33,826 nucleotides of DNA from a virus (Duplodnaviria; Heunggongvirae; Uroviricota; Caudoviricetes): positions 1-33,826 of IMG/VR virus record IMGVR_UViG_2690316318_000017; one strand, written 5' to 3'. Positions 2,508-31,978 of the stretch are shown in pieces. Positions within the stretch are counted from its first letter, which is position 1. The number at the start of each line of letters is the position of its first letter. Made by a program: the position numbers and the translations under genes. The notes under the pieces are model-generated. The model had not been told where the DNA came from and searched no databases. It saw only the letters and a program-made list of their open reading frames with translations.

Positions 2508-2526
2508 TGAGGGTGTTCAGCACTTA
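2508..2526 (-). promoter_or_regulatory. Conserved dyad motif copy 1 (candidate late promoter/activator site upstream of gp46-like baseplate gene)
   Basis: Plus-strand TGAGGGTGTTCAGCACTT in the 53-bp gap between baseplate genes, about 45 nt upstream of the gp46-like start. Confidence 0.4.
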
Positions 2527-3177
2527 ATTAACCGGCGTGTCAGACATGCCGTGTGGGGTTGGATGTTTGTGCGTTCCGATTTTAACGCCATTAATGGTGA
2601 CGTCAACGGAGGTAATCACTCCACCCACATGGTTGATATTGCCTTCAAAGGTGGCAGTGTATCGCTTGCCCCCACTGATGGCCATGCCACCGTTGCCGGT
2701 GATTTTGCCTTCCACCGTCAGCCTGTCACTGGCTGTCAGTAACGGTGTCGTGAATGTGGCGTTTTCCTCTGCCTCAACCTCGTAGCGTTTGCATTTCACG
2801 CGATAAACGTCACATTCGGTTTCAATAACCCGTCCGCGCTTCAGTACGATTTTCGCGCCTTCATCGGTATACAGGGCCACTTCCCCGGGTTTCAGTTCCG
2901 TCAGACGATATGCGCCGTGCTCTGTGGCCACCACGACAGTATGGGAGGTATTGCCGTTCAGCGGAACGGCAATACCCATTGAGCCGGGCGGCGGGGATGT
3001 GGTGAGGCCGTAATGCTGAAAATACTCCGCACCGTCCAGCTGTTCGCCTGCCAGCCCGTTAAGCTGAAGCAGCTGTACTTTGGTCGAACTGTCCACCGTA
3101 CCGGTCACCACCCTGAATGCCTGGCGAACGGCGGCCAGTGCCTGCTGTACGCGCTGATTAACTTTGTCCCACATCAT
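2524..3177 (-). CDS. Baseplate spike / assembly protein V-like (Mu gp45-like)
   Basis: 217 aa ORF between the gpD-like hub and gp46-like genes; Gly/Thr-rich with His-rich C-terminal tip (HKHPTPHG). Confidence 0.55.
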   Translation of the reverse strand: MMWDKVNQRVQQALAAVRQAFRVVTGTVDSSTKVQLLQLNGLAGEQLDGAEYFQHYGLTTSPPPGSMGIAVPLNGNTSHTVVVATEHGAYRLTELKPGEVALYTDEGAKIVLKRGRVIETECDVYRVKCKRYEVEAEENATFTTPLLTASDRLTVEGKITGNGGMAISGGKRYTATFEGNINHVGGVITSVDVTINGVKIGTHKHPTPHGMSDTPVN

Positions 3178-8887: not shown

Positions 8888-10309
8888 TTACAAAATCATG
8901 TCGATGCGACCGGCAAACACATGCAGGCCGTTAACCACGTCGGCAGGGATCGCGCAGTCCAGGCGATTTGCATCTTTCCCGTTTCGCTGAACGCGCAGTT
9001 TTGCCTTATTCGCTTCCACATTCTCCAGAATTTCAGACTCCTCCAGCTTGAGCAGCACGTCATACAGTTCGCTTTCCACTTTTGCGATGGTTCGGGTGCT
9101 GAGTTTTTCACGCGGGAAGCGAAGGCTGATACGTTCGCGGCACGCCTTGCGGGTGTAGTCCAGTGTTCTGATGGACGTGATATCCAGTAACGAGACATCA
9201 GCCACACCCTGAGCGTTCACCGTGTAGGTACTGACCGCACGCACAATCTGCACCGTATTACCCGGTCCAACCTCAACCGGTGTCAGGCCGTTATGCAGGG
9301 CGCTTTCCTGCTCGTTACGGCTTTCGCGCTGTGACATGGCGACCACATCCAGCCCGGACAGCGCCAGCGAGTTCAGCGGGCGTGCCGGGTCTTCTTCGCT
9401 CGCCATTACTGCGCCGTAGATGGCGGCCAGCACAGCAGGAAGCATCACAGAACCACGATACCAGGGGACAGACACGCGCCCGCTGTTCACACCGGCTGCC
9501 AGGGTGATCCCGTTTCCCAGACTACCTGTCCAGCCCGCACAACCAATCGCGCCACGCTGTTCCATCGCGTTCCCGGTTTTCTCCAGGTGCTGCTTCAGGG
9601 CGGCAAGGGCTGGCGTGGTACTGAACGGACAAATCAGAATGTTGTGACCGGCAGCAAAGACCGCATCAAGTGCGGGCTGAATATCCGGGTCCATTTCGCC
9701 GCTCGCCATCGGCGTGGTAGCCACTACAAGGCCGGTTGCAGTGGTGGATACCGACAGGGTGATATCATTCCCCCAGGTACCTTTGGTCCGGGCGGTCACT
9801 GTCAGTTGAGAGGTGTCAGATTTGTATTCCCCCGTGACCAGAAGCGATGGCGTCTGCGTCATTGCCGTCACCAGTGCCGGAATGATTTTCGACGGTTCAT
9901 CCCCGACGTCCACATTAATGGCGATCTGCTCGCCAGCAATCCATACCGACAGCGTACCGCTGCTGGTTGCAGTGCCGGTGACTTTAACTGCGCCTGTTGC
10001 TGCTTTTCCTGCACCACAGTCTGCAATACCGATAACATCCAGTTGCAGATAGCTGTTGGCGTTAATGGCCGCGCGCGCCATTGCTGCGGCCAGTGAACCG
10101 GCCCCGAAATACAAATCCGCTTCGTCTTCGGAATACACAGAAACCGCATTCAGGGGGGTGGCGGTGCCATCAGGCAGCATCGGGCCAATCACCAGAACAC
10201 GCTGTTCGTTACCCGGCAACGTGTTAACGGCCAGCCGGGTATTAAACTCAAAATGCACACCGGGCTTACGGATACTGCCCGAAATGGTGTCAAACTGAAT
10301 TTCACTCAT
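8888..10309 (-). CDS. Contractile tail sheath protein
   Basis: 473 aa ORF upstream of tube; size and position of Mu L-type sheath. Confidence 0.75.
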   Translation of the reverse strand: MSEIQFDTISGSIRKPGVHFEFNTRLAVNTLPGNEQRVLVIGPMLPDGTATPLNAVSVYSEDEADLYFGAGSLAAAMARAAINANSYLQLDVIGIADCGAGKAATGAVKVTGTATSSGTLSVWIAGEQIAINVDVGDEPSKIIPALVTAMTQTPSLLVTGEYKSDTSQLTVTARTKGTWGNDITLSVSTTATGLVVATTPMASGEMDPDIQPALDAVFAAGHNILICPFSTTPALAALKQHLEKTGNAMEQRGAIGCAGWTGSLGNGITLAAGVNSGRVSVPWYRGSVMLPAVLAAIYGAVMASEEDPARPLNSLALSGLDVVAMSQRESRNEQESALHNGLTPVEVGPGNTVQIVRAVSTYTVNAQGVADVSLLDITSIRTLDYTRKACRERISLRFPREKLSTRTIAKVESELYDVLLKLEESEILENVEANKAKLRVQRNGKDANRLDCAIPADVVNGLHVFAGRIDMIL

Positions 10310-12881: not shown

Positions 12882-13245
12882 AGATGCCGATCACTTTCCC
12901 GGCGACAGGACGGGCGCTGCTGTTGTCGGTTTTTGCCACGGTTACGCTGTCTTCCACGTAGCACAGCTTGCCGACCTGCGATTGTGTGACCGGGTCTGAG
13001 GTGCTGTTCACCATCAGAAAATCTTTGCCGCAACGCACCAGAACGGTGACATCGCCATCGCTGCCGGTACTGTTATCCGCCCAGCCATCAGACACGCCCA
13101 GCGTAATCTGTGAGGCCGTGGCACTGGCCGGAACGGCATAACCGGATGCGTTAACGGCCACCATATGACCACCAAAAATTTCGGTCGCAGCGGCAACCGG
13201 CACCGGGTTCAGTTCGCCGTCACGGTAGGGGGTATTGCGATCCAT
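12850..13245 (-). CDS. Hypothetical head-region protein (between protease/scaffold and major head genes)
   Basis: 131 aa Gly/Val/Ser-rich ORF overlapping the listed start of the head gene. Confidence 0.35.
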   Translation of the reverse strand: MDRNTPYRDGELNPVPVAAATEIFGGHMVAVNASGYAVPASATASQITLGVSDGWADNSTGSDGDVTVLVRCGKDFLMVNSTSDPVTQSQVGKLCYVEDSVTVAKTDNSSARPVAGKVIGICGDGVWVHFS

Positions 13246-14415
13246 TTACTCATCTCCTGCGTAACGGGCGACATCCTCTGGATCGACGCCCATCATTGAA
13301 CAAATGGCGATATCGACATCGACGTCATCGCCGGTTTTAATCTGCGCCGGGGCAGGCGACGGCGTTTTGGGTGGTTTGCCGCCGGTCTGGGTGCTGCTGA
13401 GTGCGGCAAGCGGGGTGGTTTTATCCAGCCAGGTTTTAAAACCGTTGATATCGCGACGAGCGTAATCTTTCGCCCAGTCTTCCAGCGTCGGAAGCAGTCG
13501 TCCGTCAGACAGCGCCGCCTGAATCAGTGCCCCGGCTTCGGCCTCACCGGACTGTTGCGCCAGTGCGGCATAACGCCCCTGAAGTTCTTCATATGCCGTC
13601 AGAGGGATATGCTTCGTCGGGTCATAGGCATTTGCTGACAGGCTGGCGATTTGCTCGTCTTTCTGATTCAGCAGGGTCAGCAGACCAACAGAAGCCGCTG
13701 CCGTTCCTTTGCCACCAGAGACAGCATCAATAATTTTTTGCAGCTCTGCGCAGACTTCCTCTTCGGTTGAGGTTTCCGGCAGCGTCAGCAGCCAGCGTAA
13801 CTGTGCGAGTAAATTTGCTAATTGTTCCGGGTTCACGGTTTTGGTCTCCGTTTCAGTTGACAGACTCGCCAGACGGCTGGCCGCAGCCAGCATGACCGCG
13901 TCCATACCGTCCAGCGCAGGGGTATTGGTCAGCGCAGCATGTAACAGCTCCAGCACTTCGCCGCGCTTGTTGTAGGCAAAAACAGGGGAAATAAACTTGT
14001 ACTCACCGGCGGCAATCATGGCCGCCGCGTTCTCCGTCCACTCCACACCGGTGGCATACAGGCCCACACCTTCACGCCATTCCACCTGGCTGAACCAGCC
14101 CGCCGCCGGGGCGGGCTTGCCGTTGTTTACGGCGCGCAGCGTCTGATGTTCGTAATCAATGACAAAAGGCGTGGTACGGGCTGCCACCTGGGCGACAAGC
14201 TGCGCGGCCAGTTCAGCGGTCAGTACCCATTTACCGCTTTCGACTTCATCGGTATGTGGGCGACCATCAACCGCACTGAACTCGCCTGCCGGAAACAGCT
14301 GGATTTCGCTGTGGGTTGCTTTAGTAATTTCGAGGCTTAATGCCGCAATGTTCATCTTCATACGCGGCATGATGACGAAAGGGGAACACGGGGTACTGTT
14401 GAGGGTGTTCAGCAC
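13246..14415 (-). CDS. Head protease / scaffold protein, Mu I-like
   Basis: 389 aa ORF with Ala/Glu-rich scaffold-like C-terminal half; listed start is a GTG inside the conserved upstream motif, so the true start is probably the ATG near 14370. Confidence 0.65.
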   Translation of the reverse strand: MLNTLNSTPCSPFVIMPRMKMNIAALSLEITKATHSEIQLFPAGEFSAVDGRPHTDEVESGKWVLTAELAAQLVAQVAARTTPFVIDYEHQTLRAVNNGKPAPAAGWFSQVEWREGVGLYATGVEWTENAAAMIAAGEYKFISPVFAYNKRGEVLELLHAALTNTPALDGMDAVMLAAASRLASLSTETETKTVNPEQLANLLAQLRWLLTLPETSTEEEVCAELQKIIDAVSGGKGTAAASVGLLTLLNQKDEQIASLSANAYDPTKHIPLTAYEELQGRYAALAQQSGEAEAGALIQAALSDGRLLPTLEDWAKDYARRDINGFKTWLDKTTPLAALSSTQTGGKPPKTPSPAPAQIKTGDDVDVDIAICSMMGVDPEDVARYAGDE

Positions 14416-14417
14416 CC
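14391..14417 (-). promoter_or_regulatory. Conserved dyad motif copy 2 (candidate late promoter/activator site upstream of protease/scaffold gene)
   Basis: Plus-strand GGGTACTGTTGAGGGTGTTCAGCACCC, core GGGTG-N5-CACCC, 25/27 identical to copy 3. Confidence 0.45.
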
Positions 14418-14455
14418 GGCCATAACGGGAAAGGATAAAAGGGGAAATAAAACCG

Positions 14456-14480
14456 TTTTTAAAACCCTTTTAAAAACGAT
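14456..14480. other. AT-rich perfect palindrome in the central G-I intergenic region
   Basis: CGTTTTTAAAA-CCC-TTTTAAAAACG: 11-bp perfect inverted repeat with 3-bp spacer in the ~155-200 bp gap between the G-like and I-like genes. Confidence 0.5.
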
Positions 14481-14570
14481 TCTGACGGCATTTACGGGGT
14501 GCGGTGCTGTAATGCCTCATCCGTGAGGCGTTTATGTCGTCAGAGTCGATTACAGCGCGTTTGTGGTCAT

Positions 14571-15122
14571 TCAGTCAATCACACGCGCAAAATAGCGGTT
14601 TGCGGTGTTCTCCAGCTCGTCGATGTCGTCCTGCACAAGCTGAAGGAAGGGGCGCGCGGGCATGTTGACCGTATACGCTCCCACTGTTGCGCTCTGCACA
14701 AAATTACTGTTGCGCTTTTTCACAAAGCGGGTGCTGACGCTGCCGTTTTTGTACTGTTTAAAATACAGGTTCTGCGTCCGTGCCTGATGGCGGATTTCGC
14801 CCCCTTCGTTGTGGATACGGGCGTAACGGACGTTTGTCCCGACCGTGGCCTCGTTATTGTTAACCGCAGAGCGGATACTGGCAGCCAGTCGCCCGGACTT
14901 CTGAAGGATTTGCCCGGGGCCGCGTCGCTTCGCATAAGCCGGACTCCAGCCCATCCATTTCGGGCGACCCTGTTGTTCCAGGTTAGTCTCAACCGCATCC
15001 AGCATGGAACCCGCAAGCGCCGTCATCAGGTCGCGCCGGTCCTTCACGGAACGAATCAGTTTCCCCAGCGTGGTGTTATACGCGCTTAAATCAATCTTAA
15101 TATCCAGTTTACCGCTGCTCAT
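14571..15122 (-). CDS. Virion morphogenesis protein, Mu G-like
   Basis: 183 aa ORF downstream of the F-like gene with 4-nt overlap. Confidence 0.55.
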   Translation of the reverse strand: MSSGKLDIKIDLSAYNTTLGKLIRSVKDRRDLMTALAGSMLDAVETNLEQQGRPKWMGWSPAYAKRRGPGQILQKSGRLAASIRSAVNNNEATVGTNVRYARIHNEGGEIRHQARTQNLYFKQYKNGSVSTRFVKKRNSNFVQSATVGAYTVNMPARPFLQLVQDDIDELENTANRYFARVID

Positions 15123-16285
15123 GATGCCTCCGGGGTGTCCTGCATAACCCAGTCTGTCAGCACGTCATCCTCAACCGTCACCACCGACCAGCGGTCGCCC
15201 GACTGTAACGCATACCGCCACGCGTTACCGTCCTGCGTGACATGCTCCGCCCGTTCGATGGTCTGCTGCATCAGCACATAGTCGGCGGCGGTCGGGGGCG
15301 TGTCTGTTGCACTGAGGCGCTTCATAACGTCAGCCGTAAGGTTTACCGTCTGCCGTGCAGCACCCGTGGCGGCGACCTGTTCCGCTGAACGGATGGCCAG
15401 CGGATATCGCTGGCGCGCATCCAGTTCGCTGACGTTCGCCAGCCCCCGTGCAAAATCCGGCCCGGTCAGGGTGCCGGTAACATACTGGCGGGCACTGCGG
15501 TAATCGTATTTTTCCGGTTCCGGCTGCCATGCCACCCGACCGGGATTAAATCCGAAGCCCGGGTCGGCGGTATACACGGAACCGTCCGGCATCTTCAGCC
15601 CCATTGTTCTGATGGTCTGGCCCGGCTGGCCATATTCCTGTTCAACCTCAACCAGTCGCCCCTCGCTGCTCTGCACCGTCAGGCCATATTTCTCCACATC
15701 AGACGCCGAACGCGCCCGGATACGGCAGCGGCATCCGTACCCGTCAGGCGCGTAGAAATACTCCCAGACCGGGTCATCCGCCCGGGCGGTAAAACCGTTC
15801 AGGGCGGCGTGTTTCGGGCGGGTGTGAAGGTCCATCACCGCCACGCGCTCAAAATAAGGCCGGTCAGCCACGTTCGCTATCTGCTGCTGATAACGTCCGG
15901 CGTTGTATGACGACTGAATATTGGTATCAAATATCGTGCGCAACCGGCGCGGCGTCAGCTGTCTGCCGTGCAGTTCGCCGGTGTCCTCGTCCACAATCAG
16001 TTTTTTACCCAGCCAGCCTTTTGATTCCAGCAGTGGTTCCAGTTGTGCAGCAAACTCCCGGAACGTCCCGCCGTCAGCCAGTGCCGCCGTCAGGCCATCA
16101 CGGATATCCTTCAGCACATCCAGTTTCAGCACACCCGCCACCGTGAACGCCCGGGCGTTTGCAATATCCTTCACATCGTGCCAGCGGAAGCCGATAACGT
16201 ATCCCTTGCTTTCGAAATACTTAATCGCTTCTTCCGGCTTCAGGGTGTACGCATATCCCAGGTCAACATCGTCAGCTGTCGGCAT
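15119..16285 (-). CDS. Head morphogenesis protein, Mu F-like
   Basis: 388 aa ORF immediately downstream of the portal gene. Confidence 0.6.
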   Translation of the reverse strand: MPTADDVDLGYAYTLKPEEAIKYFESKGYVIGFRWHDVKDIANARAFTVAGVLKLDVLKDIRDGLTAALADGGTFREFAAQLEPLLESKGWLGKKLIVDEDTGELHGRQLTPRRLRTIFDTNIQSSYNAGRYQQQIANVADRPYFERVAVMDLHTRPKHAALNGFTARADDPVWEYFYAPDGYGCRCRIRARSASDVEKYGLTVQSSEGRLVEVEQEYGQPGQTIRTMGLKMPDGSVYTADPGFGFNPGRVAWQPEPEKYDYRSARQYVTGTLTGPDFARGLANVSELDARQRYPLAIRSAEQVAATGAARQTVNLTADVMKRLSATDTPPTAADYVLMQQTIERAEHVTQDGNAWRYALQSGDRWSVVTVEDDVLTDWVMQDTPEAS

Positions 16286-17867
16286 TCAGTCGCCCCCAGA
16301 TATCCGCCACAAAGAATGCCTGCGTCAGCAACTGCCGCAGCGTGTCATCCGGCAGTTCCGGCCACGCTTCCGCCAGTACATTCATGGCCTCGTCTGCATC
16401 CCGGCCTTCCTGTATGGCCTGCACCAGTGGGGCCACCAGTTCGTTCATCCCCTGCGCGATGGCCTCTGCCGGAAGCTCTGCCCGGTCGATGGCGCGCTGT
16501 GCCGGGTCGTCCTCCCCGTTGTCCTGCTGACTGAGCGCGGCAACATTCAGCCGCTCACGCAGCTGGCTGAGGCCCGCCTGCACAGGGAGATGCTGTGCCA
16601 CCGGCACCAGTACCTCTTCGCCGTCTTTCGGGGTGGGGATACCGGTTTTTTTGCGTACCCACGACACAGGGATATCCTTCATCCCCACATTGTTGACCAG
16701 CACGTTGACGGCTTCTGCCACGCCCTTAATGTCGGCTTCCTGCTGCACATCAAACACCAGACGCGGCAGACGGCGTGGCGGGATATCCTGCCAGCCGTTC
16801 AGGCTGGCCATCATCTGTATCAGGCTGCTGAACATGCCGGACAGCTGGCGAGCATCGGCGGCCAGAATGTCGCGCCGGACCTCGTTATGCACATTACCCA
16901 GCGCGTTGGTGGAGGTTTTACCGTCAGCCTGGCTGGTCAGCGTACTGCCCAGAATCACTTTTGAGGTGGTACGCTCCGCCCATTCCACCATCGACATGAA
17001 CGCCTCCGGCCCGCCGGACGCGGCTTCCTTGAACTCGATTTCGTTACCCTGCGGCAGGGCTGCCACCGCTTCATGGCCCAGATTGACCAGGGCTTCAAGA
17101 ATGTTGTCCCGGTCCTCGTCACTGGTGCCCTGTGCATAGTACGCAATGCGCGCCGGAAGGCCGTAAATCTCCAGAAATTCTGCCATATCACGCAGCGCAA
17201 AGTTTTTGAACAGATACGGCCAGACCAGTACACGAAACAGACCAGACGAACCCAGGAACCCCGACCGGGCGTTGTAACGGTGAACCAGCCAGCCGAACGG
17301 CCACAGCGCGGAACCGTCTTTACCATCTTCCCCACGATTGCCGTCATCCAGCCGGAGTTCGTCATTGTGTTCCGGCAGGGTAATAAACCAGTTATGCGGT
17401 CGCAGCGTCACCGCATCCGGTAACCACGTTTTATCCACGAACGCCCAGCTGATTTCCTGACAGCTGAAGCCGTAACCGACACTGGTCATCCCGTTGAGGA
17501 TGATGTCCTCCATGTCCGGGATACCGTGCAGCCATTCATCCACGGCGGCGGCCAGCTCCTTTTCTGCCTTCGAGGCATTGCGGGGTGGCTCCACCGACCA
17601 GTCCAGCGTCAGCAACGCTTTTTTGCGCTTTTCCATCTCGGCGAACAGATGACCATCACGTTCTTCCATATCCGCAAACAGCATCGCCTGCGCCGGAAGA
17701 TAACCGCGCTCGGCAGCTTCCAGAATGCGCGGCAGTTTTCTGATGTTCAGACCACGGGACGGGTGGTCGGGATAAATGCGCAGCCGTTCCGCCACTCTGA
17801 CCGACTGCGTGGTTTTGAGTGCCTCACGTTTCAGCGGGCGTCCGTAAATATCAACAAGCTGTGCCAT
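16272..17867 (-). CDS. Portal protein (Mu gp29/H-like)
   Basis: 531 aa ORF directly downstream of the terminase large subunit. Confidence 0.75.
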   Translation of the reverse strand: MAQLVDIYGRPLKREALKTTQSVRVAERLRIYPDHPSRGLNIRKLPRILEAAERGYLPAQAMLFADMEERDGHLFAEMEKRKKALLTLDWSVEPPRNASKAEKELAAAVDEWLHGIPDMEDIILNGMTSVGYGFSCQEISWAFVDKTWLPDAVTLRPHNWFITLPEHNDELRLDDGNRGEDGKDGSALWPFGWLVHRYNARSGFLGSSGLFRVLVWPYLFKNFALRDMAEFLEIYGLPARIAYYAQGTSDEDRDNILEALVNLGHEAVAALPQGNEIEFKEAASGGPEAFMSMVEWAERTTSKVILGSTLTSQADGKTSTNALGNVHNEVRRDILAADARQLSGMFSSLIQMMASLNGWQDIPPRRLPRLVFDVQQEADIKGVAEAVNVLVNNVGMKDIPVSWVRKKTGIPTPKDGEEVLVPVAQHLPVQAGLSQLRERLNVAALSQQDNGEDDPAQRAIDRAELPAEAIAQGMNELVAPLVQAIQEGRDADEAMNVLAEAWPELPDDTLRQLLTQAFFVADIWGRLNADS

Positions 17868-17870
17868 TAA

Positions 17871-19529
17871 TTACCATCCTCCTGAACCAAAACGCCCGCC
17901 ACGGTCACGCCCGCTGCTGCGTGGGGTGTGTATCTGAAATTTTGCGCTGCGCGATACCGCCAGCGTCCACAGCATGTGCAGACAGTCCGGGCCATCATCG
18001 TGGTCGGCTTTGGGGTAGTGGCGCAGCTGGTCAATCAGCGTCTGATGTGCCGGACTGATGCGAATCAGGCCGTTGGCCATATGCGGCTGAAGGGATTCGA
18101 TACGCAGCGCTTTATCCTCCAGCGGGATGACCGGCAGTGCCGGAACCGGCACACCCAGCGCCGCCGAACGCTCAACCAGCACGGTACGCAGAAACTCCTG
18201 AAACTGAACGGATTCAAACGACCAGCACAGGCAGTGATATTCACGCTGATACTTAATCACGTCTTCGATAAGTTTATTCGGCAGACGTCGGCGGATATCG
18301 GCTTCAACCACATCCAGAATGCCGGTAAAGCGGTTAAAGCCCCCCACGAGAATGGCCGACGGGTCGCGGTTTTTATTCTTCTTCCCGAGGCTGGGGTCAA
18401 CAGCGCCGTAGAACACCCATTCATCAAGACGGTTAACCCAGAATTTAATGCAGCCCGCAAACAGCGCATCTTCACCGCTGACCGGGTCGTTCTGGTATTC
18501 AGAATCAAAGGTGTCGTGACCATCACGGACACGGATTTTCATCAGCGCCAACAGGGGACGCGCCGCCCATGACACCACCGACCCGGCGAGCATCTCGGCT
18601 TCGTTCTGCCGGTAAAGTGCCTCCGCCGCTTCCGGCTGTTTGTTGCGGATGAGTTCTTCCCACTCGTCCCACAGCTTCATGTTGGCAGGCCACTGAATAA
18701 CAGCCTTAAAGCGGGCTGTTTTCCACATCGGGTTATTGAGTGTGCGCGACAGCACGGAGTCGTAATGCAGAATGGTCCCGATATAAATAATATCGGTTTT
18801 ACCGCCAGCCTCGCCCAGCGGCATCACGGTTTTGGTAAGCCAGTCATGCAGCTTGTCGCGCTGCTCCGGGTTACGCACCATTTCGTCGTTCTCGATATCG
18901 TCGAGGATGACCAGGTCAGGACGGTACGGGCCGTGACGCAGACCACGCAGCTTTTTACCACTACCAGCGACGGTCACCTTGATATTGTTGGCCGTGACGA
19001 TGGTCCCCATACGCCAGACGCGACCCTGCCCGCACACCTCCGGGAAATCGTTTTTTAAACGGGGGTTAAACTCCAGTTCAGCCTTGATGGCTTCCAGCAT
19101 CGGATAAGCCTGGTCGATACTGTCCATAATGATGACCGGGTAATGCTTAATGGCCCGGATAATGGTCCACAGGGTAAACAGCTGAGTCACCAGCGTGGAT
19201 TTTGCTTCACCACGGGGCGCGGCGATGGCGTCGTTCTCCGGGTCCGGGCTTGCCACAACCTGTGGCAGACGGCTGAACAGGTATTTATGCAGCTCGCTTT
19301 TTGCCGGGTTGCGGACGTAGTGCGGGAAATAATTTTCGACAAAATAATCATAGCCCGTCACCGGATCGCAGACTGCCGCCCGGCGGGCCTGTGTGGCCTG
19401 TGGGTTAACATCGAACCCCAGACATTCAGCCTCAATGGTCTGGCGGAGGTTGGCGATGTACTCCTGCAGGCTTCTCTGAAACTCTTTAATGGAAAGTTTA
19501 CGTTTTGCCACGTCACACCTGGTATACAA
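17871..19529 (-). CDS. Terminase large subunit
   Basis: 552 aa ORF upstream of portal; first in-frame ATG is >130 codons in, so the start is probably TTG (19529) or GTG (about 19511). Confidence 0.75.
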   Translation of the reverse strand: MYTRCDVAKRKLSIKEFQRSLQEYIANLRQTIEAECLGFDVNPQATQARRAAVCDPVTGYDYFVENYFPHYVRNPAKSELHKYLFSRLPQVVASPDPENDAIAAPRGEAKSTLVTQLFTLWTIIRAIKHYPVIIMDSIDQAYPMLEAIKAELEFNPRLKNDFPEVCGQGRVWRMGTIVTANNIKVTVAGSGKKLRGLRHGPYRPDLVILDDIENDEMVRNPEQRDKLHDWLTKTVMPLGEAGGKTDIIYIGTILHYDSVLSRTLNNPMWKTARFKAVIQWPANMKLWDEWEELIRNKQPEAAEALYRQNEAEMLAGSVVSWAARPLLALMKIRVRDGHDTFDSEYQNDPVSGEDALFAGCIKFWVNRLDEWVFYGAVDPSLGKKNKNRDPSAILVGGFNRFTGILDVVEADIRRRLPNKLIEDVIKYQREYHCLCWSFESVQFQEFLRTVLVERSAALGVPVPALPVIPLEDKALRIESLQPHMANGLIRISPAHQTLIDQLRHYPKADHDDGPDCLHMLWTLAVSRSAKFQIHTPRSSGRDRGGRFGSGGW

Positions 19530-19537
19530 ATATCAGA

Positions 19538-19557
19538 CGGCCCGGAAAACCGGGCCG
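19538..19557 (-). other. GC-rich hairpin between terminase small and large subunit genes
   Basis: CGGCCCGG-AAAA-CCGGGCCG, perfect 8-bp stem, in the 34-bp gap between the two genes. Confidence 0.4.
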
Positions 19558-19563
19558 CTGTGG

Positions 19564-20067
19564 TTAACTGAAATTATCCTCAAGCTCTTTAGCGAAACCT
19601 TCGAGCACTTCAAGGAACGCGGCATACTGTGCCGGGTGACGCTCCTTGATGAATGCGCCGAGCCGCTGCACCACTTCCAGTGCCGTGGCGAGCCGGTCGG
19701 TTTCCGGCAGGATTTTTTTACTGCTGGCCACCGCCTTACTGAGACTGTCAGACAGACTCGCCAGCAGTTCGACGGACTCCTGCGGCGGGATGTCCGGGTT
19801 CTGGTTCAGCCGTTCAAGCGTCGTCTGACACTTCACCACCAGACTGATAAGCACGGTGCGGGCGACACTTTCCAGCCCGTCACCGGCGAGCGCGTGCGCG
19901 GCCCGCAGCTTGTCCCAGTCGTCGCCGTTTTTCATCGCCTGCGTTTTCCAGCGCCGCGCGGTGTCGTGCGGCACGGCGAACTTCATGGCGACGATATCCA
20001 GCGGAAGCTGGTCAAAGATGTACCCGTTACGGACTTTGTCCCTGATATCCTGTGACCACGCCATCAA
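19564..20067 (-). CDS. Terminase small subunit-like DNA-binding protein (Mu gp27-like)
   Basis: 167 aa ORF immediately upstream of the large subunit. Confidence 0.5.
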   Translation of the reverse strand: MMAWSQDIRDKVRNGYIFDQLPLDIVAMKFAVPHDTARRWKTQAMKNGDDWDKLRAAHALAGDGLESVARTVLISLVVKCQTTLERLNQNPDIPPQESVELLASLSDSLSKAVASSKKILPETDRLATALEVVQRLGAFIKERHPAQYAAFLEVLEGFAKELEDNFS

Positions 20068-20384
20068 ACGCCCTTCCGGGTATCTGAAACCGTTGCGCCA
20101 TCAGGTAGTTCGGTGACTGCAAATACAGGCATTCCGGGATGGCGGACATCCTCAATCATTTCCAGCATGGACTCGCCAAACCATTTCAGCTGTGCTGCCT
20201 TGCGGGCGTCCTGGTAATAAACCAGATAGCGGTTTTCACCATCTGCATACTGGGTACGGGCTTTAATTTCCCCGCATTCTCCGCTGACGTGCAAAGCCAC
20301 AACCTGCGTCAGTCCGAACTTAAAGGGACGCCCGGGAACAGCGGCTTCCACCAGTGCAATCGCGGTGTTTTCTTTTTGTTTCAT
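20064..20384 (-). CDS. Hypothetical protein (Mu gp26 position)
   Basis: 106 aa ORF between the lysis cassette and terminase. Confidence 0.3.
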   Translation of the reverse strand: MKQKENTAIALVEAAVPGRPFKFGLTQVVALHVSGECGEIKARTQYADGENRYLVYYQDARKAAQLKWFGESMLEMIEDVRHPGMPVFAVTELPDGATVSDTRKGV

Positions 20385-20404
20385 CTGTCCAAAACCTTAA
20401 AAAA

Positions 20405-20587
20405 TCAGTTCTGCGAACACTGCCGGATACCGTCAATAATCCGGCAGACCTGCGCCGCCGCGTCAAACAGCTGGCCCGCTCTGTTAATGTCTGTGCATCC
20501 CACCGGAAGCAACATCACCAGAAACAGAGTCAGAACACAGCGCGCGGCTTTACGTGGCGTCCTGTGGGTCCAGTGCTGACGCGTCAT
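20405..20587 (-). CDS. Small lipoprotein, candidate outer-membrane spanin component
   Basis: 60 aa; basic N-terminus, hydrophobic stretch and Cys in lipobox-like context (LLPVGC); start overlaps the endolysin stop. Confidence 0.35.
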   Translation of the reverse strand: MTRQHWTHRTPRKAARCVLTLFLVMLLPVGCTDINRAGQLFDAAAQVCRIIDGIRQCSQN

Positions 20588-21129
20588 ACCGCCACGCGCT
20601 CCTTCAGCCAGCCATAAACAAACGATTCGTTAGCCTCGCGTTTCTCCGCCAGTTCCAGATAGCGGTCCCCCTGCGTACAGTTCAGGGCCGTCAGCATCAC
20701 CCGTTCACAGTCCTGACCGCGATTATTCAGGAAGGCGCGCAATGCACTGATGGTACGAGGCCCGATGCGTCCGTCTGCGTCCATATCCGGGTACAGCCTG
20801 CCGCGCAGATTGAACACATTCAGCCAGCGCTGAAGCATTCTGGACGCCACGGTTGGCCCCATATTCACACCGGTATCACACAGCTCTGCGGCAATATCAG
20901 GGGATAATGCGGCGACCTGGTCAAATCGCGGGCCATACCAGTAATCGGCTTCAAGGATGTCCAGCGCCTGTTCGCGGGTTAAATCGCGCATATCGCCACG
21001 GTATCCGTGGGCGCGGGCAACTTTTTCCGTAATGCCCCATTTGGTTGGACCGCCCTTATCATCCGGGTGATTGACATAACCGCCTTCTTTGCCCAGGACT
21101 TCATCAAAAATTTTATCTTTTGATTTCAT
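20584..21129 (-). CDS. Endolysin, GH108-type muramidase with PG_binding_3-like C-terminal domain
   Basis: N-terminal motif GKEGGYVNHPDDKGGPTKWGIT matches the GH108 signature; no N-terminal transmembrane/SAR segment. Confidence 0.75.
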   Translation of the reverse strand: MKSKDKIFDEVLGKEGGYVNHPDDKGGPTKWGITEKVARAHGYRGDMRDLTREQALDILEADYWYGPRFDQVAALSPDIAAELCDTGVNMGPTVASRMLQRWLNVFNLRGRLYPDMDADGRIGPRTISALRAFLNNRGQDCERVMLTALNCTQGDRYLELAEKREANESFVYGWLKERVAV

Positions 21130-21415
21130 GTGGATGCCTCAGTAACGAAAGGATTTTTGACAAATTCCCGTGCGCCCACACGATAAGCGCACAGAAAACC
21201 AGATTCAGCGCCACAACCAGCCAGCTTGAGTGCGTGTATGTACCGGACAGCCAGCGGAACGGGATGATGATGTATCCGAGCATCAGCCAGTACGCCAGCC
21301 AGGTAATCATCGGTTTATGCGCCGCACCGTGGCGGCGATACACAAACAACCCCAATACAATGGCGAGACACAGCCAGACGTTCACGATACCGGCAAGGCT
21401 ACTTTCCATTTCCAC
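21113..21415 (-). CDS. Holin-like membrane protein (three predicted TM segments)
   Basis: 100 aa with three hydrophobic stretches; overlaps endolysin start by 17 nt. Confidence 0.45.
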   Translation of the reverse strand: MEMESSLAGIVNVWLCLAIVLGLFVYRRHGAAHKPMITWLAYWLMLGYIIIPFRWLSGTYTHSSWLVVALNLVFCALIVWAHGNLSKILSLLRHPHEIKR

Positions 21416-21851
21416 CCCCTCCGCCGCGCAGTCTGGAAAACAGGCCGAACAGCGATGAAATTTCCTGTTGATAAAGAAAGGTCAGTATCTTGATGGATAA
21501 CGCCGAGACACCGACCGCACACAATGCATCGAGCGGTTTGTCGTTGTAGTGGGTCAGCCACTGCATCAGTGACGCAGCCACGCCAGCCCCCAGAACGCCA
21601 ACCACAAACGCGACGAGCAGGTGAATAGCCATTCGCCAGACCGGGATTTCTTTTTGCTGCGTGACAACAAAAAGCGCCCCGGCAAACGCGCCCACCACGA
21701 CTCCGAAATCGGTATTGGTGAGAAGACCAAACACACTGGCACCACCGATGGTGACTGCCACAGCTCCGCCGCCTGATAAGGGTTCAGACATGAGTTTCTC
21801 CTGTAAATCTGAGCCACTGACGGCCCGTAAATAACACCCTGTCAAAGGCAC
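21399..21851 (-). CDS. Holin/antiholin-like multi-pass membrane protein
   Basis: Gly/Ala/Val-rich hydrophobic protein; listed start is GTG, likely true start is the internal MSEPLSGGG ATG about 60 nt downstream; first gene after the conserved upstream motif. Confidence 0.4.
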   Translation of the reverse strand: MPLTGCYLRAVSGSDLQEKLMSEPLSGGGAVAVTIGGASVFGLLTNTDFGVVVGAFAGALFVVTQQKEIPVWRMAIHLLVAFVVGVLGAGVAASLMQWLTHYNDKPLDALCAVGVSALSIKILTFLYQQEISSLFGLFSRLRGGGGGNGK

Positions 21852-21933
21852 AAAAGCCTTTTGCAGGGCGCTATCCCTTAAGGTGCCTTGTGGTCTGAGT
21901 GGACAGGGTAAACGGTCTGGTGTGGTGGGTACT

Positions 21934-21954
21934 GCTGGGGGTGTTCAGCACCCC
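21934..21954 (-). promoter_or_regulatory. Conserved dyad motif copy 3 (candidate late promoter/activator site upstream of lysis cassette)
   Basis: Plus-strand GGGTACTGCTGGGGGTGTTCAGCACCCC; 25/27 identical to the copy at about 14391-14417. Confidence 0.45.
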
Positions 21955-21973
21955 GCGGCGGCGGGGTGATAAA

Positions 21974-22252
21974 TCAGAAGCGGGAAAGGGAATCAGGCGT
22001 AATAAGAGGTTTATTACAAAGCGGAGCAGAGGCGTTCGCCTTTTCCATCGCTGCGCGCATCTCGTTTTCGCTGGCGATGATGTCAGCAATGGCACACTGC
22101 AACGCTTCTTCCTGAACAACCATATCCGGTTGTTCAGCCATTCGGTTTAGCTGGCTGGCCAGATTTTTCATATAAGCGAAGCGGCGTCCGGCAGCATCCC
22201 GGGCCTGCTCTGAGTAGGCCGTATACTCGCCAAGTGCCGTATAGTTGGTCAT
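21974..22252 (-). CDS. Hypothetical protein
   Basis: 92 aa ORF with AGGAG Shine-Dalgarno, located between the Mor/C-like gene terminator and the lysis-cassette motif. Confidence 0.35.
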   Translation of the reverse strand: MTNYTALGEYTAYSEQARDAAGRRFAYMKNLASQLNRMAEQPDMVVQEEALQCAIADIIASENEMRAAMEKANASAPLCNKPLITPDSLSRF

Positions 22253-22276
22253 AAGTGTCTCCTTTTTTGAGGCCCA

Positions 22277-22744
22277 TTAATCAAAAAGCCCCACCAGGGT
22301 GGGGCTTTTCAGCGAAGTCTGTTTTTGTCGTCGGTGTATCAGCTGCCATGCATACCGGTCTGAAATGCCGTAACGGGGACAGAGCAGTGCCAGCGCCTGC
22401 CGGTGTGAGCATCCGTCTTTTACATGCTGCTGTAAATCAGCCATAAAACGGGTGTTACGCAGGGCACGTAACGCATGATCGCAACGGGGAATGTAAAACG
22501 GAGCACCGCCAAGAAAGCGGATCAGTTTGTTGATTTCGTCTTCGGTCAGCACATCATGTAACAGGGCATGGACACCGCCGGTTCGTTCGGCGTGTGCGCC
22601 GGTTTTACCGCTTAACGTCACGCCACCAAAAGAACGGATTAACCGGGTCAGAGCGGGGAAGCCAATCACGCTAATCAGTTGCTGCACGGAATCAGGCAAC
22701 AGTGCCTGCGCATCGCGAAGATCTGTTTCACTGAAGGTCTGCAT
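22277..22744 (-). CDS. Mor/C-family transcriptional activator of middle/late genes
   Basis: 155 aa; C-terminal pattern LGGAPFYIPRCDHALRALRNTRFMADL...RYGISDRYAWQLIHRRQ matches the Mor/C signature (G..YIP plus HTH). Confidence 0.7.
   Translation of the reverse strand: MQTFSETDLRDAQALLPDSVQQLISVIGFPALTRLIRSFGGVTLSGKTGAHAERTGGVHALLHDVLTEDEINKLIRFLGGAPFYIPRCDHALRALRNTRFMADLQQHVKDGCSHRQALALLCPRYGISDRYAWQLIHRRQKQTSLKSPTLVGLFD
22280..22312 (-). terminator. Rho-independent terminator after the Mor/C-like gene
   Basis: Minus-strand hairpin AAAAGCCCCACC-CUGG-UGGGGCUUUUU followed by a U-run; overlaps the last codons of the upstream gene. Confidence 0.6.
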
Positions 22745-22800
22745 GATGGCGTCTCCGGTAGTAACTTACTGTTATTATAGCCATACATGATCGGCTGTAC
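22745..22800 (-). promoter_or_regulatory. Putative promoter of the Mor/C-like gene (perfect -10, weak -35)
   Basis: Minus-strand TATAAT at about 22774-22779 (preceded by TGGC), about 30 nt upstream of the ATG; no good -35, consistent with an activator-dependent promoter. Confidence 0.4.
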
Positions 22801-22804
22801 AGGG

Positions 22805-22832
22805 CATAAAAAAGCCCCTGCAAGGCAGGGGC
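22805..22832 (-). terminator. Rho-independent terminator ending the early operon
   Basis: Minus-strand GCCCCUGCCUUGCAGGGGC (8-bp stem, 4-nt loop) followed directly by UUUUUU, just after the GemA-like stop. Confidence 0.65.
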
Positions 22833-22839
22833 TGATTCT

Positions 22840-23379
22840 TTATTGTTTACGTGCTGCTCTGGCTCGTTTTCTGGCGTCTTTTGTCAGCGCCACCATCACC
22901 CCGAACAGTTGATCATCTGTCAGCCATTCGATCACATGTTGCTTATACATGTGAGATGCCAGTCCTTCCGCATACGTCCAGGAACGACCGGCATCAGCCA
23001 GCAACGCTTCAATTTTGGATAATACTGATTTTCTGCTCATTGCAACACGGGGGCGGCGACCTTTACCGGCGGGTGCCTTGCGCGGAAATCCCTGTTCGTG
23101 CATGTATTCCCGGATGATGCGCAGTTCATCGAGATTGCAGCGTGTGGTGCTGGTTTTACCGGTCAGACGGGCCAGCGTCTGGCGATAAAGGGCATCATCC
23201 CACCCCAGATACGCCTGACCGGCTTTAATGGCTCCGATCATCTTTTTCAGCATGTTTGTTATCCTCAAAACGCACGGTAAAACGTGAAACGCCAATCCCT
23301 GACAGAAACGCGGCGGCACGGTCAAGAGACAGCCACGTCTTGTAATCGCCACGGCGTTCCTGTAGAAAATAGGACACAC
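22840..23379 (-). CDS. GemA-like early regulatory protein (Mu gp16-like)
   Basis: Pattern IKAGQAYLGWDDALYRQTLARLTGKTSTT...ELR.I.EYMHEQGF resembles the GemA family; true start probably the internal MLKKMIG ATG near 23253. Confidence 0.4.
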   Translation of the reverse strand: MCPIFYRNAVAITRRGCLLTVPPRFCQGLAFHVLPCVLRITNMLKKMIGAIKAGQAYLGWDDALYRQTLARLTGKTSTTRCNLDELRIIREYMHEQGFPRKAPAGKGRRPRVAMSRKSVLSKIEALLADAGRSWTYAEGLASHMYKQHVIEWLTDDQLFGVMVALTKDARKRARAARKQ

Positions 23380-23539
23380 CAGCGCGGCGATTCACAGCGA
23401 ATAGATGATACACACCACCGAACCGCTGCACGACGAACTCATCCACGCCACCGCTTTCAGCCTGCTGCCTGAAGGCAGCTATTCCGATTTGTTCAATCTT
23501 CATAATGACCAAAACACTACTTTTGGCAGACCAAAACAT
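23225..23539 (-). CDS. Hypothetical early protein
   Basis: 104 aa ORF (likely shorter, from MKIEQIG) upstream of the GemA-like gene. Confidence 0.25.
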   Translation of the reverse strand: MFWSAKSSVLVIMKIEQIGIAAFRQQAESGGVDEFVVQRFGGVYHLFAVNRRAGVSYFLQERRGDYKTWLSLDRAAAFLSGIGVSRFTVRFEDNKHAEKDDRSH

Positions 23540-28751: not shown

Positions 28752-28991
28752 TTATTGCCATACGACGGTGCAGCCGTCGATACAGGACGTTTTAACCACA
28801 CGACGCAGGCCGCTGAATGTCTGGATGATTTCCGTTATCGGCCATACAGGACCGCCCACGGGCGGGCAGGCATAAACCACAGGTAAACGGTGATGTTGCC
28901 CAGTTACGCGACCGCCGGTGGTGTGGATGGCTACACGGGCACGGGAACGGACGGCGTTAATGGTCTGCTTGTCCATCGTCTTGTTCTCCAT
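28752..28991 (-). CDS. Hypothetical small protein immediately downstream of B (kil-like position)
   Basis: 79 aa ORF whose start overlaps the B stop codon. Confidence 0.3.
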   Translation of the reverse strand: MENKTMDKQTINAVRSRARVAIHTTGGRVTGQHHRLPVVYACPPVGGPVWPITEIIQTFSGLRRVVKTSCIDGCTVVWQ

Positions 28992-29884
28992 CAGTGAATT
29001 AACATTTCTGAATATTTATCAATGACCTGCACACTGACCGGTGCATCGCTGATATCACAAATCCGGTACACACCGCGCGCCAGCTTGAACAGACGACGGG
29101 CATTGCCCAGCGAACGTGTGTAAAGTGCCTCACCAATTTCCGGGTCTGCCGCTTCCGGCATCATGTCTGTGGCAATCTTGTTAAAATCTTCCTGCGTCAG
29201 CGTATCGCCCAGGTTAAGCGCCAGCGCCACGCGGCTGTATAATTGAGCGAACTCACCACAACGGCCCTTAAGGTTAATCAGAAGGTGAGGCATACCCGCC
29301 AGGACAATCCCGATACCCGCTTTGTCATGCAGACGGCGCAATACCTCCAGTGCACGATAGGGAAGCAGTTCAGCCTCATCCACCATCAGCAGACGACCTG
29401 ACCCACGCAGTTCACGCACACAGGCATCAATCTTCTCGCGAATATCGCCGTGAACCTTTATACCCAGCTGACGGCACAGTTCATCGAGTAACTTTCTGGC
29501 CGTATAGCCAATATCGGCTTCAATGAGCACTACATCCCGGTTTCTGGCAGCATACTCACTCAGAATCATGCTTTTACCCAGACCCGCCGCGCCATACAGC
29601 ACGCAAATATCACACTCCAGATGGGCGTAGGTCAGCACCTCCAGCCCTTTGGCGGCCATGCCGGTGGTGACAAATCGCACTTTAATACGGCGGTTGTTTT
29701 CCTTTTCCCATTCACGGGTCACAAAGGCAGAAATGCGTTCTTCAATATCAGCCATATCGCCCTGATATTTACCCTGCAAATACTGGTTAATAACGGCGCT
29801 GCTACGACCAATAGCACGGGCAACGTGGGTCTGCGTAAAGCCGCGACGGGCCATTACGTCATTTAATTGCGTAATTAAACTCAT
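28991..29884 (-). CDS. B: Transposition ATPase, MuB-like
   Basis: 297 aa; N-terminal HTH-like region then Walker A (GAAGLGKS) and Walker B-like (LLMVDEAE) motifs; directly downstream of the transposase. Confidence 0.8.
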   Translation of the reverse strand: MSLITQLNDVMARRGFTQTHVARAIGRSSAVINQYLQGKYQGDMADIEERISAFVTREWEKENNRRIKVRFVTTGMAAKGLEVLTYAHLECDICVLYGAAGLGKSMILSEYAARNRDVVLIEADIGYTARKLLDELCRQLGIKVHGDIREKIDACVRELRGSGRLLMVDEAELLPYRALEVLRRLHDKAGIGIVLAGMPHLLINLKGRCGEFAQLYSRVALALNLGDTLTQEDFNKIATDMMPEAADPEIGEALYTRSLGNARRLFKLARGVYRICDISDAPVSVQVIDKYSEMLIH

Positions 29885-29902: not shown

Positions 29903-31978
29903 TTAACGATTATTTGTGCCGTTTTTCTTTAAATTGCGCTCACGGTCAGACACGAATAAATAAAGTTCTTCTTTTTCCTTTTTCTCCTGGCGTTCCAGTC
30001 CATATCCCAGATTAAAGTCAGGCTTCTGCGTAATAGCCGGGGTAAGCTCGCGTTTAGCCTCTTCGATTTTCTGCGTGGCCCGTGCAATGCGGCCTCTGGC
30101 GCGTTTCTCCTGCTGCTGTTCGATAACAGCTTTCGGGAACGCATCAACCTTATTACCGTTCCAGATGGCATCGCAGATATAAGAGCCATCAGCCCGCCGG
30201 ACAATGACGCTGTTTGCATCATGAATATCGTAACTGACCCTGACTTCATTCCCGTGCTCTGCGGCCAGCTCATACGAGTAATAAATATTGTTGAATAACT
30301 GAATTTCCCCGCGAAATGTTTTGCGCGTCACTTCCGGCCTGAACATTTCATGCAGTTCTTCCTGCGACAGAAAATCAATTTCAACATTCTGCTCTTTTAT
30401 CAGTTTCCGGCGATACGCTGCCGGGCTGTAATATTCGCCATCCTCTTTGCGGGGAAGGCTGCTGTGTGGCCGGTTGTTATAGCGTCTGACCTCCAGCTCT
30501 ATGGCGGCCATCAGTTGCTCAAAGGTAGGGATTTCATCCCTCGCCTTAACCTGCCGTTTTGTCAGCTCTTTCCCTTTGTGGGTGGCCTTAATGGCTGACT
30601 GTGTGATGCGTTGCTGCATCATCACCGTTTCCTTGTCTGCATTTTTTGAGCAGTACGTCTGGAAACTCAGAGCCACATCTTTGGGTATTCCTTTGTTTGC
30701 TCGTTCTATTACCCCGCGCCCCTGCGGGTTACCAGGTATCCCCGTGTGATGCTCCACACCCAGCCGGGGCAGAATCCCGGTAATATCGGCATCAAGTACC
30801 TGGTTTTTTTCACCGCCCCCGTTATCGGAGTAATAAATCAGCGGTATTCCGTGCTGTGCCATGCCGTAACGTAATGCATCAGCAACGGCTATCACGTTTT
30901 CCGACAGGGACAGGGACCAGCCCACAACAAAGCGCTGCCCCGCATCCATAACCAGCGTCACTTCTGGCCGGAAAATATTGCCGGTCAGGGGGTTAAACGC
31001 GGTCATTTTCATACAATGACCATCCCCGACCCATACCGCATTAACCGGTAATGATGTCCACTCGCGCCGCACAAAGGGATTGAGCGAACGCCAGGCTGAA
31101 CCTGTGGAGCGGAAACGCTCCTTAACAATCACCGGGACGCTGCTTAACACCCGTCTTACTGCGTGAACTGAAGGCAGTGCCGCCAGCATTCCCGCATCGT
31201 TCGCGTGTTTTTCATGCCACCAGGCTGAAAACTCGCGATACGCATATTCAACGGTCGGTCGCTTCCATGAGCGATAGAACATAAAGAAATCGCTCAACCA
31301 CCAGACCTGCTCCCACGGTGTCCCCTTATGATGACCGGGAGCCAGTAACGCCAGTAACTGATTGGCATCACCGCGCGCCATCACCCAGCTGGAGTACCAG
31401 CTATCCAGGCTGCCGGTGCTGACACCGGTTCGCTTTCCCTGACGTGCATTTGCAGTATTAGCTGCTTCGATAATGCGGTCAGGTAACGCCCCCATGCGCA
31501 CACCATCAACGATGTGCTTTAACGCGGCCTTCCTGGTCATTCCGGCGTATTCACGCAGTTTATGCACTTCAGTAGCCAGCAATATCCGCGCATCAGCGAT
31601 GGCCTTTTGCTTGTCGGTCAGTGCCTGGACTTCGCGTAATGCCAGTTCAGGGCATTTGACCATCACTTCAAGTTCATCGCGAATGGTGACGTTCTTAACT
31701 GCCTTCTGCTCAACCACAACGGGCAGTTGCGTATCTTCCAGGACCTGATGGGTCAGGCGTTGACGTAAAACCTTCTGAACATCTTTAGGTAAACTGGATA
31801 TATGGTACTCATATATTTTCCCCTGAACTCCAGACTTCCTTCTTCTTGTCCAGTTCGCTCGTTTAGCTTTTTGAGTGATCCCCTGTACAGTTTTCGGTAG
31901 CCCTTGAAGCCCTGTTAGTTCATTCAACGTAAACCATTCAGGTTCGAACTTGACTTCATAGTCGTTGTTCTTATTCAT
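29903..31978 (-). CDS. A: DDE transposase, MuA-like
   Basis: 691 aa; N-terminal DNA-binding domain paralogous to the repressor N-terminus; central core with acidic residues (VWVGDGHCMKM... and IYYSDNGGGEKN) consistent with a DDE/RNase H-fold catalytic domain. Confidence 0.9.
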   Translation of the reverse strand: MNKNNDYEVKFEPEWFTLNELTGLQGLPKTVQGITQKAKRANWTRRRKSGVQGKIYEYHISSLPKDVQKVLRQRLTHQVLEDTQLPVVVEQKAVKNVTIRDELEVMVKCPELALREVQALTDKQKAIADARILLATEVHKLREYAGMTRKAALKHIVDGVRMGALPDRIIEAANTANARQGKRTGVSTGSLDSWYSSWVMARGDANQLLALLAPGHHKGTPWEQVWWLSDFFMFYRSWKRPTVEYAYREFSAWWHEKHANDAGMLAALPSVHAVRRVLSSVPVIVKERFRSTGSAWRSLNPFVRREWTSLPVNAVWVGDGHCMKMTAFNPLTGNIFRPEVTLVMDAGQRFVVGWSLSLSENVIAVADALRYGMAQHGIPLIYYSDNGGGEKNQVLDADITGILPRLGVEHHTGIPGNPQGRGVIERANKGIPKDVALSFQTYCSKNADKETVMMQQRITQSAIKATHKGKELTKRQVKARDEIPTFEQLMAAIELEVRRYNNRPHSSLPRKEDGEYYSPAAYRRKLIKEQNVEIDFLSQEELHEMFRPEVTRKTFRGEIQLFNNIYYSYELAAEHGNEVRVSYDIHDANSVIVRRADGSYICDAIWNGNKVDAFPKAVIEQQQEKRARGRIARATQKIEEAKRELTPAITQKPDFNLGYGLERQEKKEKEELYLFVSDRERNLKKNGTNNR

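Follow-up and report, generated by a model that had tools for sequence, protein, structure and literature searches.

The stretch of DNA analysed here (33,826 nt, hereafter the window) is a Mu-like, transposable E. coli prophage with its genes on the minus strand. Its map runs from the transposase gene A (29903-31978) and the B gene (28991-29884) through the gene for GemA (22840-23379) to a gene for a 155-aa Mor/C-family activator (22277-22744; C-terminus ..VGLFD), a 92-aa ORF between the activator and the lysis genes (21974-22252), and a lysis cassette of two holin genes and a GH108 endolysin gene (20584-21851). The endolysin gene is followed by terminase, portal and a G-like morphogenesis gene (14571-15122), then by the protease/scaffold gene I (13246-14361) with the head and tail genes behind it; farther along lie gp45 (2524-3177) and the baseplate gene gp46 (2120-2470), which is followed by gp47 and gp48. 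An intrinsic terminator follows gemA (22813-22833, minus strand), and a near-consensus sigma70-like promoter, TGTACA-16-TATAAT (22801-22774, minus strand), lies ahead of the activator gene. Related prophages are present in 61 of 5426 complete E. coli genomes (about 1%), including EPEC strain E2348/69, and in most of the 61 the prophage is 95-99% identical to the window over 21300-23400. A 98% identical relative annotated by PGAP has the same gene order and a single Mor-family gene, and its annotation is our source for the start codons of I and of the holin gene. A megablast search of 13000-23000 against deposited phages returned no close published phage genome, the best match being a 5% match to Yersinia phages. 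At the right end of the 98% identical prophage of E. coli F163 (L002 3556-4397) the tail-fibre and tail-fibre-assembly genes occur a second time in inverted orientation, which resembles a G-segment, and neither an invertase nor mom is annotated before the prophage ends.

A 13-mer, GGGTGTTCAGCAC, occurs exactly three times in the window, at 2511-2523, 14403-14415 and 21939-21951, each time on the plus strand and hence in one orientation relative to the minus-strand genes. With up to two mismatches allowed there are 7 matches against 1.1 expected, a number that none of 100 shuffled sequences reached. A 26-mer, GGTACTGYTGRGGGTGTTCAGCACCC, matches only at 14392-14417 and 21928-21953, and 21927-21953 agrees with 14391-14417 at 25 of 27 positions, with two substitutions; the first-pass annotation, which had reported this pair of 27-mers, was right about the identity but had placed the copy at the lysis genes one base off, at 21928-21954. 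The 16-nt core that it had described ahead of a baseplate gene (2508-2523, site 3) is identical to 14400-14415 (site 2). Written in the direction of the genes, the sequences of the three sites are GGGGTGCTGAACACCCCCAGCAGTACCC, CGGGTGCTGAACACCCTCAACAGTACCC and TAAGTGCTGAACACCCTCACCTGATTC. All are intergenic, as had been said of them: site 1 lies between the 92-aa ORF, which ends at 21974, and the holin gene (ATG 21791), site 2 between the G-like gene, which ends at 14571, and gene I (ATG 14361), and site 3 between the gp45 stop codon (2524) and the gp46 ATG (2470), so that the motif does stand before three late-gene blocks, the lysis cassette, gene I and baseplate gene gp46. An exhaustive search of the window for the core yielded these three exact copies and no other. 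With a weight matrix made from 45 relatives' sites the window's three sites score 28-37 bits, whereas the next best site in the rest of the window scores 9.8 and the shuffle maximum is 15. A fourth copy had been predicted near a mom-like gene; the matrix scan finds none in the window, and the tail-fibre end of the F163 prophage has neither a box nor a mom gene.

We think that the three copies are very probably the activator-binding boxes of three Mu-like late promoters of Mor/C type, which we call P_lys, P_I and P_46. At P_lys the box, GCTGAACACCCCCAGC (21934-21949, minus strand), is a 16-bp imperfect dyad with a predicted centre at -43.5; the predicted -10 hexamer, TACCCT (21905-21910, minus strand), starts 31.5 bp beyond the box centre, and transcription is predicted to start near 21896-21900 (minus strand), about 105 nt before the holin ATG. 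The P_I box, GCTGAACACCCTCAAC (14398-14413, minus strand), is paired with a predicted hexamer CATCAT (14369-14374, minus strand), at which relatives have CATCAT, TATGCT, TACGCT or TACACT. The P_46 box, GCTGAACACCCTCACC (2506-2521, minus strand), lies 2 nt past the gp45 stop codon, and its predicted hexamer, CAGACT (2477-2482, minus strand), is preceded by TGc, as in an extended -10, and falls in the loop of an RNA hairpin discussed below. The hexamers of the window are poor, with only A2 and T6 common to all three; in the window and its relatives a NANNNT hexamer always starts 31.5 bp downstream of the box centre, and every position that we give relative to +1 rests on this predicted -10. None of the three sites shows a -35/-10 promoter in a scan with the sigma70 consensus, which is what activator-dependent promoters would lead one to expect. 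A sigma70-like match within the gp45 coding sequence (TTGACG-16-TAAAAT, 10/12, at 2606-2579, minus strand) was rejected as a promoter; it is probably due to chance, being found only in close E. coli relatives and missing from diverged ones that bear the box.

By analogy with Mu C, which acts in this way at Plys, PI, PP and Pmom, we infer that a dimer or higher oligomer of the 22277-22744 protein occupies the box across the -35 region and brings in sigma70 RNA polymerase. P_lys would then supply the lysis and head-packaging genes from an mRNA with a leader, P_I the head protease/scaffold, capsid and tail genes, and P_46 the baseplate wedge and tail-fibre genes, with the A of the start codon as the predicted first base of the last two transcripts.

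Comparison with relatives provides evidence for these promoters. Homologues of the activator were collected and aligned, and loci from other species were taken for a search with the box pattern [CG][TCG]GCTGAAC-N4-[TC]CA, the hexamer forming no part of the selection. Seven genomes of other genera (Xenorhabdus, Trabulsiella, Photorhabdus, Intestinirhabdus, Buttiauxella and two Morganella), whose activators are 44-58% identical to that of the window, each have exactly two gene-strand matches within 10 kb downstream of the activator, the first shortly past the activator gene and the second immediately ahead of I. When the 17 sites, including the window's three, are aligned without gaps on the G of CTGAA, the hexamer at +36..+41 has A2 and T6 in 17/17, with TATACT, TACACT, TATGCT, TACGCT, CACAAT, CAGAAT and CATCAT among its forms, while the sequence between box and hexamer and the flanking intergenic DNA have diverged. 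For the gp46 site we turned to IMG/VR loci found via gp47 (79 loci, gp47 identity 45-100%): in nearly all, even at an identity of about 46%, a box lies 398 nt before gp47, where gp45 and gp46 meet, with the hexamer positioned as in the window and the ATG 6 nt past it, and the A and T of the P_46 hexamer are invariant in 34 distinct relatives. About 100 related loci retain a box before lys, I and gp46, and the counterpart of the P_lys box is found shortly past the activator gene in all relatives. The complete Klebsiella phage ST405-OXA48phi1.1, whose activator is 41% identical, has three CCACTGAAGCCCNTCAAC boxes before the same three units, and SuMu (activator 32% identical) has another dyad, TGTGGAAG-N4-TTCC, at lys, I and gp46 with equal spacing. 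The predicted three-promoter late layout of lys, I and gp46 is thus conserved, and since the relatives share ancestry these counts are not counts of independent events. Position +4 of the spacer, which is A in the window, T in L116 and L035 and C elsewhere, changes in concert; this was considered as a sign that the activator reads the position and dropped, L117 having both T and A in one genome.

The product of 22277-22744 had been taken for a Mor/C-family protein, and it is one: it passes the cutoff of Pfam PF08765 (29 bits against 24.9), and PGAP calls the gene of the 98% identical relative "Mor family". By BLASTP it matches Mu C at 6e-5 and Mu Mor at 7e-5, with about 27-41% identity over short segments, and its gene is the only one of the family in the prophage. 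Local tblastn searches showed that phages of Xenorhabdus, Photorhabdus and Morganella have tandem paralogs, and further loci came from IMG/VR. We call the downstream paralog, which is of the window's type, W, and the upstream one, which the Klebsiella phage and L079 have without the other, K. Distinct boxes were sorted by their nearest upstream activator. Late boxes have G at position -3 in 32/32 cases where W is alone and A in 9/10 where K is alone; in the K-W tandems the box between the two genes has A in 9/10, and the lys and I boxes downstream of W have G in 20/20. Pooled, this makes G in 52/52 boxes with window-type activators and A in 18/20 with the K type. Each paralog would thus appear to read its own box variant, and the contrast within single tandem genomes is the strongest evidence available for this. 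In the tandem loci (L003, L007, L010, L012 and L121-L138) the first paralog ends about 650 nt before the second, and an A-type box, CCACTGAACCCCTTCAAC, with AATACT lies about 90 nt before the second. Tandem paralogs with a promoter between them recall the Mor-to-C cascade of Mu, with two variants of the box per genome, and the window's protein, to judge from its type, would be the C-like, late member, as the sorting of the boxes suggests.

Several smaller observations concern the activator. Its last codons (..KSPTLVGLFD*; 22277-22310, minus strand) are encoded by a hairpin that resembles a terminator, GCCCCACC-CT-GGTGGGGC with TTTTTG behind it. The family's conserved C-terminal (Q)xGLF(D) resembles the clamp-binding motif reported at the C-terminus of Mu C (PMC12867686). 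In Tenebrionibacter intestinalis (L008 9890-10460) a Mor homologue, about 52% identical, is encoded outside any Mu-like prophage, next to the gene for a large primase/helicase-like protein and to host genes, and a box-like GTGCTGAACACTCCCCACC with TACCGT lies directly upstream of it. This locus may be a satellite-like element wired into the late regulation of a helper phage.

The proposal that the copies are equivalents of the Mu C sites is supported in part. The Mu C site is a 16-bp imperfect dyad at -43.5, in promoters that have a -10 but no -35, and the bases that come next on its downstream side are of importance too (PMC2582627; PMC4461284). In the window, likewise, an activator of the same family is encoded just upstream of the lysis genes, and the candidate promoters, which have a -10 but lack a -35, contain a 16-bp imperfect dyad whose 6-bp spacer is rich in C and whose centre is predicted at -43.5; in Mu Pmom the distance from the centre of TTAT-GCCCCA-ATAA to TAAGAT is 31.5 bp, equal to that of the window. 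The conservation of the boxes ahead of lys, I and a baseplate gene, the fixed distance to a -10 and the tracking of box variant with activator type all favour the equivalence; the dyad originally proposed, the fourth copy and a position at P are not supported. Mu has four late promoters and the window's prophage three, without a mom gene or mom promoter, and the tail promoter precedes gp46 here but P (gp44) in Mu, where gp45 and gp46 overlap; of the late positions in Mu, those at lys and I match here and the third differs. The box itself is different, GCTGA-ACACCC-TCAGC-like here as against TTAT-GCCCCA-ATAA at Pmom, and it is also unlike Plys, PI and PP; we found no CTGAAC-type site in Mu, in agreement with the remark of the first-pass annotation that the sequence is not the Mu C site. 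The Pm promoter and Mor-to-C cascade of Mu have their likeness in the Xenorhabdus, Photorhabdus and Morganella tandems, with a box promoter between the paralogs, whereas the window has the downstream, C-like paralog only, and a terminator and the sigma70-like promoter, rather than a box, precede its gene. Mu I also has about 40 nt and a Shine-Dalgarno sequence (SD) before its ATG, in contrast to the leaderless starts that we predict for I and gp46.

Which dyad constitutes the element is a separate question. The first-pass annotation took GGGTG-N5-CACCC, at 21939-21953 within its 27-mer, to be the core recognised by a dimeric regulator, which would then be centred at about -48. Sites 1 and 2 have it as an inverted repeat with perfect 5-bp arms, and its loop does not vary among the three copies. 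It is present at those two sites only, however: the distal arm of site 3 runs into the gp45 stop codon and is therefore CACTT on the plus strand (AAGTG in gene sense). Among 56 distinct relatives' sites its arm pairs are complementary in 9-46%, as against 41, 27, 84, 100 and 88%, from the outer to the inner pair, for GCTGA-N6-TCAGC, the 100% of the G(0)/C(+9) pair having been set by the pattern used to select sites, which required CTGAA and a C at +9. In the latter dyad the TGA/TCA core is thus complementary in 84-100% and the two outer pairs in 27-41%. Its arms match at 4/5, 4/5 and 3/5 positions at the three sites of the window, and a perfect 5+6+5 dyad occurs in several genera, for example GCGCTGAACCCCCTCAGC. 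GCTGA-N6-TCAGC is centred 4.5 bp downstream of the other repeat, at the Mu-like -43.5 rather than at -48, which departs from the Mu paradigm (PMC2582627). On this evidence the conserved element is probably the 16-bp imperfect dyad GCTGA-N6-TCAGC at a predicted -43.5, and we conclude that CACCC is its C-rich spacer and GGGTG a lineage-specific flank; that GGGTG-N5-CACCC is the functional element seems improbable.

It is also possible to read the copies in ways that dispense with a Mor/C box altogether. A factor other than the Mor/C protein might recognise them, such as the 92-aa ORF product, GemA, a host regulator, or an alternative (ECF) sigma factor using GAAC as its -35. Binding by the Mor/C protein is itself a prediction, and GAAC is similar to the AAC core that ECF -35 elements have. 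GAAC lies 32 nt from the hexamer, though, far too long for a -35/-10 pair, and was rejected on this spacing; no sigma factor is annotated in the prophage. In four of the tandem loci (L003, L007, L010 and L012) the lys box comes directly past the activator gene and leaves no room for the 92-aa ORF, which is therefore not required. The box variant, moreover, covaries with the type of Mor/C paralog, even within single genomes, and we regard another reader of the boxes as quite unlikely. Less likely still is that the motif acts in RNA, as a small mRNA hairpin (GGGUGCUGAACACCC) for processing, stabilising, antitermination or translational regulation, with transcription starting further upstream. 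The single orientation of all copies and the fixed distance to an ATG at two sites would suit such a role, and there is a real RNA hairpin at site 3, albeit downstream of the box. But the 5-bp stem is not conserved in relatives, nothing in the window matches Rfam, and the only sigma70-like match upstream of site 3, that within gp45, is not kept beyond close relatives. NANNNT at a fixed distance in every one of the 17 aligned sites suits a promoter instead, relatives having good -10s such as TATACT, TATGCT and TACACT, and the box would then lie upstream of the transcript at P_lys and P_I. Finally, the copies could be non-functional, relics of duplication or recombination between modules or products of chance, and Mu-like prophages are indeed mosaic, with box variants mixed within close E. 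coli relatives (for example L117). Three exact 13-mers are not expected by chance, and box, hexamer and spacing survive across genera at three loci where the flanks have fully diverged; this is the least plausible of the explanations, and we give it almost no weight.

The predicted promoters of I and gp46 stand in an unusual relation to their start codons. The I ATG at 14359-14361 (minus strand), which is the PGAP start and opens a conserved N-terminus, MK..IAAL, lies 7 nt past CATCAT, and the gap is 6-7 nt in every relative; the gp46 ATG (2470) lies 6 nt past CAGACT, a gap kept in essentially all relatives. A start 7 nt beyond the last base of the -10 is canonical, and because the gap of 6-7 nt fits this distance, the A of the ATG is in each case the predicted +1. 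Anti-SD pairing, scored for the 45 annotated genes of the 98% identical relative, is weakest of all for I (+0.7 kcal/mol), and I and gp46 (-1.5 kcal/mol) are the two weakest of the 45. We lean toward the view that the I and gp46 mRNAs are leaderless and begin at the start codon, as spacing and the lack of an SD suggest. The lys promoters differ, with leaders that contain SDs, that of the window being about 105 nt long. Two considerations count against leaderless starts. The Klebsiella phage ST405-OXA48phi1.1 has GTG rather than ATG at the predicted gp46 +1, and GTG is a poor leaderless start in E. coli; and leaderless translation is usually inefficient in E. coli, whereas scaffold and protease are needed in quantity. 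A leaderless phage mRNA is familiar from lambda cI transcribed from PRM, and the likeness extends to a start predicted at the A of the AUG without a Shine-Dalgarno sequence; here, by contrast, late structural genes and an activator-dependent promoter are concerned, and the starts are predicted.

At P_46 the start codon is also part of a hairpin. In the sense-strand RNA, CCAUGCUGCC-AGACU-GGCGGCAUGG (2467-2491, minus strand; CCATGCTGCC-AGACT-GGCGGCATGG in the DNA in gene sense, 2491-2467) folds with the gp46 AUG (2468-2470) in its 3' arm, at -24.9 kcal/mol in a 46-nt context and with a z of -6.6. In an alignment of 34 distinct relatives (L020-L098, about locus position 9630-9654) the 10-bp stem is paired in 93.8% of cells, a value that falls to 28-47% when the partner is slid by 1-3 columns. 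Five of the ten stem pairs have compensatory double changes, and the one-sided changes are mostly U-G or G-U wobbles, which indicates an RNA stem in preference to a DNA palindrome, because wobbles work only on the sense strand. Even the GTG of the Klebsiella phage is matched, by a change of CAT to CAC in the 5' arm. The loop is the -10 hexamer, with its invariant A and T. Since the predicted +1 comes only after the 5' arm, the hairpin can form only in read-through from gp45. In such a read-through transcript it would bury an AUG that already has no SD, and a transcript started at P_46 would be without the 5' arm, so that gp46 would be translated only from P_46-started transcripts. At the I promoters we looked by eye for an AUG-sequestering hairpin and found none consistent across relatives. 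The mom mRNA of Mu has a translation-inhibitory stem-loop that is opened by Com, and there too a late gene has its start codon covered by a stable hairpin; nothing here points to a Com-like protein, and the relief that we propose is transcription starting inside the hairpin.

Taken to its full extent, the proposal is that throughout a widespread clade, in Enterobacterales and relatives, the I and gp46 operons are leaderless from Mor/C-dependent promoters, the gp46 hairpin silences read-through, and the choice of start site decides whether the baseplate and tail-fibre genes are translated; this we advance tentatively, at somewhat short of even chances. If true, the leaderless starts and the AUG-sequestering hairpin would mean that promoter choice gates translation in a phage late operon. 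The box would work like those of the late promoters that depend on C in Mu; what would be unusual is the predicted leaderless arrangement, which is conserved, together with the hairpin at the start codon. The searchable literature yielded no account of this box and none of leaderless late mRNAs from phages of the Mu type. The late-promoter set and its activator box should improve prophage annotation and late-regulon prediction for this Mu-like lineage of E. coli and many other Enterobacterales. The G and A variants at -3, with their two paralogs, amount to a natural specificity switch, a possible means of asking how DNA is read by Mor/C proteins; the question is timely in view of recent work on Mu C, its structures and its dependence on the clamp (bioRxiv 10.1101/2025.05.02.651988; PMC12867686).

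Two further features lie close to these promoters. In K-type phages (L079 2887-2960; L100 about 9270-9345) the leader of the lys mRNA opens with a 5'-terminal hairpin, GACACCATCC..GGATGGTGTC, and this hairpin reaches right up to the endolysin ATG. In the window, the intergenic region between the G-like gene and I contains an 11-bp perfect inverted repeat, CGTTTTTAAAA-GGG-TTTTAAAAACG in gene sense (about 14450-14480), and similar, TTTTTAAAA-rich sequence is also found in the G-I gap of Mu, by the annotated gyrase cut site, of SuMu and of the Klebsiella phage; the repeat may be the equivalent of the strong gyrase site of Mu.
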